NCBI RefSeq assembly: GCF_964213995.1
Contig: NW_027590135.1
Location: forward strand, 372,001-436,000
Source: Mustelus asterias
Lineage: Eukaryota
DNA: 64,000 nt
Reading direction: 5' to 3'
Below the pieces are notes generated by a model. It had not been told where the DNA came from and did no database searches. It saw nothing but the letters and a program-made list of their open reading frames with translations. Both the position numbers and the translations under genes were made by a program. Shown piece by piece: positions 33,991 through 34,830 of the stretch (its first letter is position 1; each line of letters begins with the position of its first letter).

Positions 33991-34115
33991 CCGTAACCCC
34001 GTAACTATCCCCGTAACCCCACATAGTTATCCGGCAAATCCATCTAAACTATGCATCCCGGGACACTAAGGGGCAATTTAGCACGGCCAATCCACCTAAC
34101 CCGCACATCTTTTCA

Positions 34116-34440
34116 ATCGCTTCTCGGCCTTTTGGCTAAGATCAAGTGTAGTATGGATTGGATGCTGCACTTGGTTGAGGTCATGAGGTTACATTGAAGC
34201 TTCATATGTTTCATATGAAGCAATTTTTAAAAGCGGCATCTCGGCCTTTTGGCTAAGATGCAAATGAGCTCAAGCCTTGGAGGAGGAACCTCCCCCAACT
34301 CCATTCAGCTTGGCTCATGTAGATCGAGCCCAGGACAGGGTAATTTGGTCGCTTGCCCTGACTTGTCAGCCTGGATCGGAAATGTCTCAACTTGTTGAGA
34401 CTCTGAATTGAATTTGATTGAATTGGAAAAGTACAAAAAA
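34116..34440 (+). mobile_element. U2 snRNA-headed, A-tailed structured element (putative U2-SINE or U2/Keno-type chimera)
   Basis: 34116-34154 equals U2 nt 1-39 (ATCGCTTCTCGGCCTTTTGGCTAAGATCAAGTGTAGTAT); second U2 stem-I copy 34236-34261; ends GGAAAAGTACAAAAAA. The U2 match is firm; the element class is inferred. Confidence 0.65.
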
Positions 34441-34830
34441 ATGTCTGGAAGAGGAAAGAGCGGCGGGAAAGCTCGGGCCAAGGCCAAGTCTCGCTCCTCC
34501 CGGGCTGGACTGCAGTTCCCGGTGGGCCGTGTTCACAGGCTCCTGAGAAAGGGCAACTATGCTGAGCGTGTGGGTGCCGGAGCCCCGGTCTATCTGGCTG
34601 CTGTGCTCGAGTATCTGACCGCTGAAATCCTGGAGCTGGCCGGGAACGCGGCCCGGGACAACAAGAAGACCCGCATCATCCCCAGACACCTGCAGCTGGC
34701 CGTCCGCAACGACGAGGAGCTCAACAAGCTGCTGGGAGGAGTGACCATCGCTCAGGGCGGGGTGCTGCCTAATATCCAGGCCGTGCTGCTGCCCAAGAAA
34801 AGCAGCGCTGGGTCCGCGAAGAGCAAGTGA
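34441..34830 (+). CDS. H2A: Histone H2A (129 aa); ORF intact but native promoter not visible
   Basis: [51 protein letters not shown]...LLPKK. Confidence 0.97.

Follow-up and report, generated by a model that had tools for sequence, protein, structure and literature searches.

The window analysed here, a stretch of 64,000 nucleotides from the 3.68-Gb genome of Mustelus asterias, is part of a histone/tRNA cluster and holds one gene each for H2B, H2A, H3, H4 and H1. An earlier note on this DNA had drawn attention to the H2A gene, whose reading frame and stem-loop it described as intact while the usual promoter was missing, and the features recovered around this gene (Table 1) bear out that description. 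The junction of GTACAAAAAA with ATGTCTGG is located at 34431-34448, where the A tail of a short retroposon runs directly into the H2A ATG with no histone promoter between the two, and no target-site duplication (TSD) accompanies the element. The left flank is, as described, a truncated reverse-strand SINE of tRNA type, which we take to be HE1-like; the LINE fragment at 32196..33582 is presumably CR1-like, and with both the repeats resemble those known from sharks. The statement that the other four histone genes keep their promoter motifs holds for H2B (CCAAT boxes), H3 (CCAAT and TTTAAA) and H4 (TATAA) and fails for H1, where a motif scan of 220 bp upstream detected none of the promoter motifs sought. 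Elsewhere in the window, positions 19278-22277 carry an uninterrupted LINE-like reading frame of 999 aa, probably a young CR1-type copy.

Table 1. Features around the element–H2A junction (positions within the window).
Feature	Position	Strand	Remarks
CR1-like LINE 3' fragment, later arrival	32196..33582	+	only in window copy and closest sister on C130; absent from other aligned units
Left flank	33583..33992	.	synteny with intact type-A H2A paralogues at about -2550 to -2130; 94-97% identity, 11/11 syntenic paralogues
Deletion 1 junction	33993..34006	.	loss of 865-888 bp; 14-nt insert templated by sequence to either side of break; 13 places
Reverse tRNA-type SINE island, 106 bp, kept between two deletions	34007..34112	-	93-98% identity to same SINE copy upstream of intact paralogues
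Filler, 3 nt, at element 5' junction	34113..34115	+	not present in empty site
U2-headed short retroposon (SINEU-like), full-length, 325 bp	34116..34440	+	replaces 1130-1183 bp of H2A promoter and 5'UTR
Element head, U2 snRNA nt 1-39, identical	34116..34154	+	Rfam RF00004 alignment
Second, internal U2 5' fragment in element	34240..34259	+	
Element A tail	34435..34440	+	last two A may be native AA preceding ATG
H2A ORF, 129 aa	34441..34830	+	protein identical to intact paralogue (L042/L119)
Histone 3' stem-loop	34856..34900	+	Rfam RF00032, 41.2 bits; intact
Convergent histone H3 gene with promoter	35610..36020	-	carried within amplified unit

The ancestral state of the H2A upstream region was reconstructed from its paralogues. 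An exact H2A-start pattern matched 90 places in the genome and one more was reached via the element, and the 91 upstream regions were classified as 40 of type A, 30 of type B, seven on contig C5, one other and 13 led by the element. With the element in only 13/91 regions, it is not a normal leader common to most H2A genes, which the earlier note had named as an outcome that would overturn its reading. TATAA is present in 39/40 type-A and 25/30 type-B paralogues and a CCAAT/ATTGG box in 70/70; at promoter distance, neither TATAA nor CCAAT occurs in the element-led copies (0/13). Most type-A paralogues (34/40) end in TTGTGCAA directly before the ATG. Eleven intact type-A paralogues share synteny with the window to either side and define the empty site (in a twelfth that was fetched, L119, upstream synteny with the window was not found). 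Measured against them, the segment in whose place the element now stands (deletion 2) spans 1130-1183 bp in 10/11 paralogues and 2130 bp in the one with an extra LINE, and the DNA lost includes the TATA motif, the CCAAT boxes and the 5'UTR. The A tail merges with the native AA-ATG. Further to the left, by 106 bp, deletion 1 (33992/34007) removed 865-888 bp relative to 11/11 syntenic paralogues. The insertion-associated deletion proposed earlier is supported, and its extent is measurable against intact paralogues. A chimeric retrocopy of the element and an H2A mRNA is excluded, the upstream DNA and the downstream DNA through H3 both being syntenic with intact genes.

Independent insertions also occur in other H2A promoters (L057, L111, L071, L088, L046): HE1-like SINEs stand roughly 95 bp ahead of the ATG, and a CR1-like piece stands roughly 310 bp ahead of it. 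There is also an orphan H2A fragment, L038 (C9:106812591), which begins at the 5'UTR and ends after about 80 codons; it is likely a retrocopy whose 5' end would indicate where transcription starts.

The element at the H2A gene is a member of a true family with a shared structure, not one of a set of independent chimeras. Its 21-nt tail motif has at least 4,207 exact matches in the genome (control 0), and at 941 places the tail is followed by at least seven A. In a sample made up of the first 70 of these 941 places, on C1 and C2, the head was detectable in 46/70, and 28 of those 46 lie between exact TSDs 7-23 bp long, in flanks unrelated to one another. TSDs starting with A make up 21/26, a proportion partly built into the search; the H2A junction site has AAA like most of these TSD starts, and the target consensus of the family is weak. 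The 43 copies that were aligned are 86.7-98.0% identical to their majority sequence (window copy, 95.1%), in which a consensus scan found no pol III A or B box and three T4+ runs. Members of the family often stand in tandem or in clusters.

The deletion 1 junction, the left junction of the element and the tail-ATG junction are found at the same 13 places on eight contigs, and none of the three occurs alone; the left junction has 13 exact matches, plus one unrelated match with a single mismatch on C16. Twelve of the 13 places were compared and differ by 0-3.0% (median 2.0%), and the A tail measures A6-A8 in 13/13 copies. Since 13 copies that have diverged to this degree share the junction, a single misassembly, the other outcome against which the earlier note had warned, is excluded as its source. 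Public contigs from four assembled sets, compared over 34265-34490, yielded no bridging or contradicting piece among the longest of several hundred, and pieces of the element at 90% identity or above turned up in public runs of two other organisms. A tree of the coding sequence plus 300 bp (54 rows, with L096 left out and two type-B rows added) requires one origin of the element-led copies, with weak support (55/76). The 13 counts are not independent, as the small contigs may be haplotypes of C85, and merging the element-led copies at 99% leaves nine groups. Given this pattern, the 13 places likely represent one event followed by segmental amplification within the histone cluster, of a unit that includes the convergent H3 gene. 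An order in which the deletion came first and the element was inserted bluntly later was considered and rejected: the deleted-but-empty allele is on no histone contig, and the nine matches listed all lie elsewhere. In one of the 13 copies, L102 (C223:277569), the U2-headed element is itself interrupted by a tRNA-type SINE.

We consider it quite probable that a full-length U2-headed retroposon replaced about 1.15 kb of promoter and 5'UTR at the H2A ATG, likely in one retrotransposition-mediated deletion, that the resulting unit was copied to 13 places, and that its H2A is likely silent and decaying. Reverse transcription would have been primed by the A tail of the element on the AAA of GC-AAA-TG in a type-A H2A gene. 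The 5' end of the cDNA would then have been joined, via three filler bases, to a point some 1.15 kb upstream, the deletion being the one measured above, so that no TSD was formed and the promoter was lost. The 0.87-kb deletion with its templated insert, 106 bp further left, always travels with the element; it would therefore have arisen in the same repair event or on the same copy before amplification. In a later step the whole H2A-H3 unit was duplicated within the histone cluster. The mobilising enzyme was likely that of a Tx1/L1-type LINE with loose target choice, for which a co-resident Keno-like LINE is the best candidate.

A different route to the same structure, to which we assign a small but real chance, is that RNA or cDNA of the element was captured as filler at a pre-existing double-strand break, independently of an endonuclease, and that a single error-prone end-joining event also produced the left deletion. 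The left junction with its 14-nt templated insert, the 3-nt filler, the missing TSD and the invariable co-occurrence of both deletions agree with such capture, and templated inserts are typical of microhomology-mediated end joining. However, the element is full length and its A tail is fitted onto the native AAA just as in ordinary copies, most of whose TSDs have A as their first base. The earlier note had also allowed for recombination between two element copies. One copy would have stood within the upstream SINE and the other at the ATG, and the promoter between them would have been lost. This would account for a full-length element without a TSD in a family prone to tandem and clustered copies, and for Alu such deletions outnumber insertion-mediated ones 492 to 24 in the part of the literature cited here (PMC5056899). 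Yet it calls for two same-strand insertions within 1.2 kb by a family whose copies number a few thousand in about 3.7 Gb; the element is in 0/78 other H2A upstream regions (1.5 kb each), and the 13/91 that carry it always have the same junction and never a TSD-flanked precursor. We therefore regard recombination of this kind as very improbable and retain retrotransposition-mediated deletion as the preferred reading.

The fate of the promoterless H2A copies can be read from their reading frames. Full-length ORFs are found in 5/13 element-led copies vs 39/40 of type A and 28/30 of type B (67/70 for A and B; Fisher p=4e-6), and indels break 8/13 element-led ORFs, of which some 1-bp indels may be assembly errors, as against 3/70 promoter-bearing ones. 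With near-identical copies merged, 5/9 element-led groups are broken vs 3/47 other groups (p=0.0015). Among nine element-led units fetched whole, a normal protein is encoded by 0/9 H2A and 7/9 H3 genes; H3 is also broken in 4/9 promoter-intact units in which it is fully covered. A lost stop codon or a frameshift affects the H3 copies L117, L119, L126, L127 and L129. Private substitutions have a replacement:silent ratio of 10:11 in element-led copies and 9:17 in type A, both below the site ratio of 283:104; base changes alone do not show neutrality, the ratio not being discriminating, and gene conversion from working copies could account for the excess of silent changes.

The window H2A is the only element-led copy that still encodes a normal H2A, two nucleotides from an intact paralogue, and one may ask whether element-led H2A still functions, with its transcription supplied by the element or by read-through, and whether selection keeps the window copy intact. 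Its normal protein and stem-loop, together with the excess of silent changes that persists among element-led copies, speak for this, but eight of its 13 siblings are broken, including a sister that is 99.3% identical. Furthermore, the element offers no TATA or CCAAT, no pol III boxes and nine upstream ATGs, none of which opens into H2A (the longest upstream ORF has 46 aa), and the promoter of U2 genes is external and would not be carried by the U2 head, as described in the portion of PMC4494074 cited here. We thus see very little prospect of a functional element-led H2A. Indels have built up in the H2A that lost its promoter, and the H3 next to it has mostly stayed normal; the promoterless copies are likely silent and decaying. 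The element-led H2A is probably a dying gene and not a sign that histone genes are targeted.

The earlier note had further suspected a U2-specific endonuclease behind the family. In part this holds: short-element tails adjoin the U2 site in 12 copies (control 0), a site also used by a Keno-like LINE, but most copies are dispersed. A search for an A run before the U2 remainder gave 12 places, of which seven carry the coding 3' end of the LINE and three the short element. In four of the U2-site copies the head is preceded by U2-variant upstream DNA, and another of these copies is part of the canonical U2 array; a further copy, internally deleted, lies behind canonical U2 upstream DNA. The LINE at the U2 site itself begins with a U2 head and has Exo_endo_phos, RVT_1 and zf-RVT domains in a 1144-aa frame, and its features (an APE endonuclease with reverse transcriptase, inserted in U2) match Keno as described in the part of PMC4640811 cited here. 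No sequence in common beyond the U2 head, and no shared 3' tail, was found between the short element and this LINE, and the short element as an internal deletion of the LINE is excluded. Because the two share nothing but the U2 head, we can only infer that the short element may be mobilised by the Keno-like LINE and transcribed from U2 promoters.

Several U2 loci encountered along the way have features of their own. At G000:C24:44815189-44935375 (L217) there are sixteen U2 sites at intervals of about 8,035 bp; the one unit inspected has an intact U2 gene and a full-length Keno-like LINE, which suggests that a U2+LINE unit was amplified in tandem. A variant U2 array at G000:C21:28050000-28082000 (L219-L223) is about 87% identical over nt 39-185, has a unit of about 448 bp and different upstream DNA, and is interleaved with Keno-like LINEs, the short element and a TTGGA-type satellite. 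Dispersed pieces of the variant array, with its upstream DNA, accompany LINE and element copies at L205/L206 (C1:80.33 Mb), L208 (C14:62.23 Mb) and L207 (C7:56.56 Mb), which suggests transduction from that array.

From the resemblance of the H2A start to the U2 site, the earlier note had proposed that ATGTCTG histone starts (H2A, H4) may be near-cognate targets of a U2-specific endonuclease. All 13 junctions of the tail with ATGTCTGG genome-wide go back to one event; no such junction was found at H4, although the pattern would have caught it, and no second histone-start insertion of the element was found genome-wide. When the 3' flanks of the 70 dispersed copies were tabulated, TGTCTG followed the tail in 0/70, and flanks starting with TCTG numbered three (0.37 expected, p=0.006). 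The register differs as well, TCTG standing directly after the A tail in U2 and two nucleotides beyond the A run at H2A. Histone start codons are not special targets. The U2-site bias of the family is real (the three TCTG flanks and the 12 copies at the U2 site) and an exact landing on an ATG is unlikely for one random insertion, albeit judged post hoc, but at least 4,207 copies and at least 91 H2A starts have given a single event, H4 has given none, and the cut is 2 nt off the U2 register; homing of the element to H2A and H4 starts as near-cognate targets is scarcely credible.

The H2A event is a textbook insertion-mediated deletion and mostly ordinary. An A tail, a missing TSD and loss of target DNA are the hallmarks of retrotransposition-mediated deletion in the part of PMC10760644 cited here. 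The L1 and Alu deletions described in the cited parts of PMC10760644 and PMC5056899 likewise combine an A-tailed insert, no TSD and target loss, in a size range that includes the present one, and can remove regulatory DNA. Unlike those, the present case arose in the germline, within a shark's multicopy histone cluster, involves a U2-headed element and a second, templated deletion, and was later multiplied to 13 copies. In the literature searched we found no earlier report of promoter loss in a histone gene by SINE insertion with pseudogenization.

Histone pseudogenes arise through birth-and-death evolution, in which promoterless or broken copies persist and duplicate inside clusters. Here, in contrast, the disabling event and the empty site can be reconstructed to the base. 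The locus offers a view of histone gene birth and death at the level of single bases, and duplications of the cluster could be dated with it as a clean marker. The junction itself is an unusually well-documented promoter deletion by a retroposon, with empty site, amplification and decay all readable in one genome.

The element, in which the wider interest lies, resembles crocodilian SINEU in its sequence anatomy. SINEU-1, -2 and -3 (Kojima 2015, PMC4494074) have, in the portion of that report cited here, a U2-derived head, repeated U2 pieces, a length below 500 bp and a poly(A) tail, and they share with the present family an internal oligo-T, the lack of pol III boxes, frequent tandem copies, the lack of a LINE with the same 3' end and a likely Tx1-type mobiliser. 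The likeness is one of anatomy and snRNA head, and the present family differs in that it lies outside crocodilians, is mostly dispersed with 7-23 bp TSDs and prefers as its special site the U2 gene, not Mariner-N4 as in the cited part of the SINEU report. In the literature searched, no report of a shark U2-headed SINE or SINEU was found by title or abstract start; the family may be named in Repbase, Dfam or the supplements of papers. Keno, a U2-targeting LINE of the Tx1 clade, is matched by description (PMC4494074 and PMC4640811, as far as cited here) by the local APE-endonuclease/RT LINE, which sits in U2 genes and whose A tail is followed immediately by the rest of U2; the short element uses the same site yet is no internal deletion of the Keno-like LINE. 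As a possibility that falls a little short of probable, we suggest from these sequence comparisons that the family is a SINEU-type one outside crocodilians whose sources would lie in U2 genes, with head and transcription from the U2 promoter, that it may be mobilised through a loosened Keno-like LINE, and that one stray insertion could have removed an H2A promoter and founded spreading histone units with H3 only. In the part of the SINEU report cited here (PMC4494074), SINEU was detected in crocodilians only, and how it is transcribed was left open. Some copies of the present family differ from SINEU in lying in U2 genes behind native upstream sequence. With such copies, which occupy the Keno site and are preceded by native U2 upstream DNA, the question of transcription can be put to the test.
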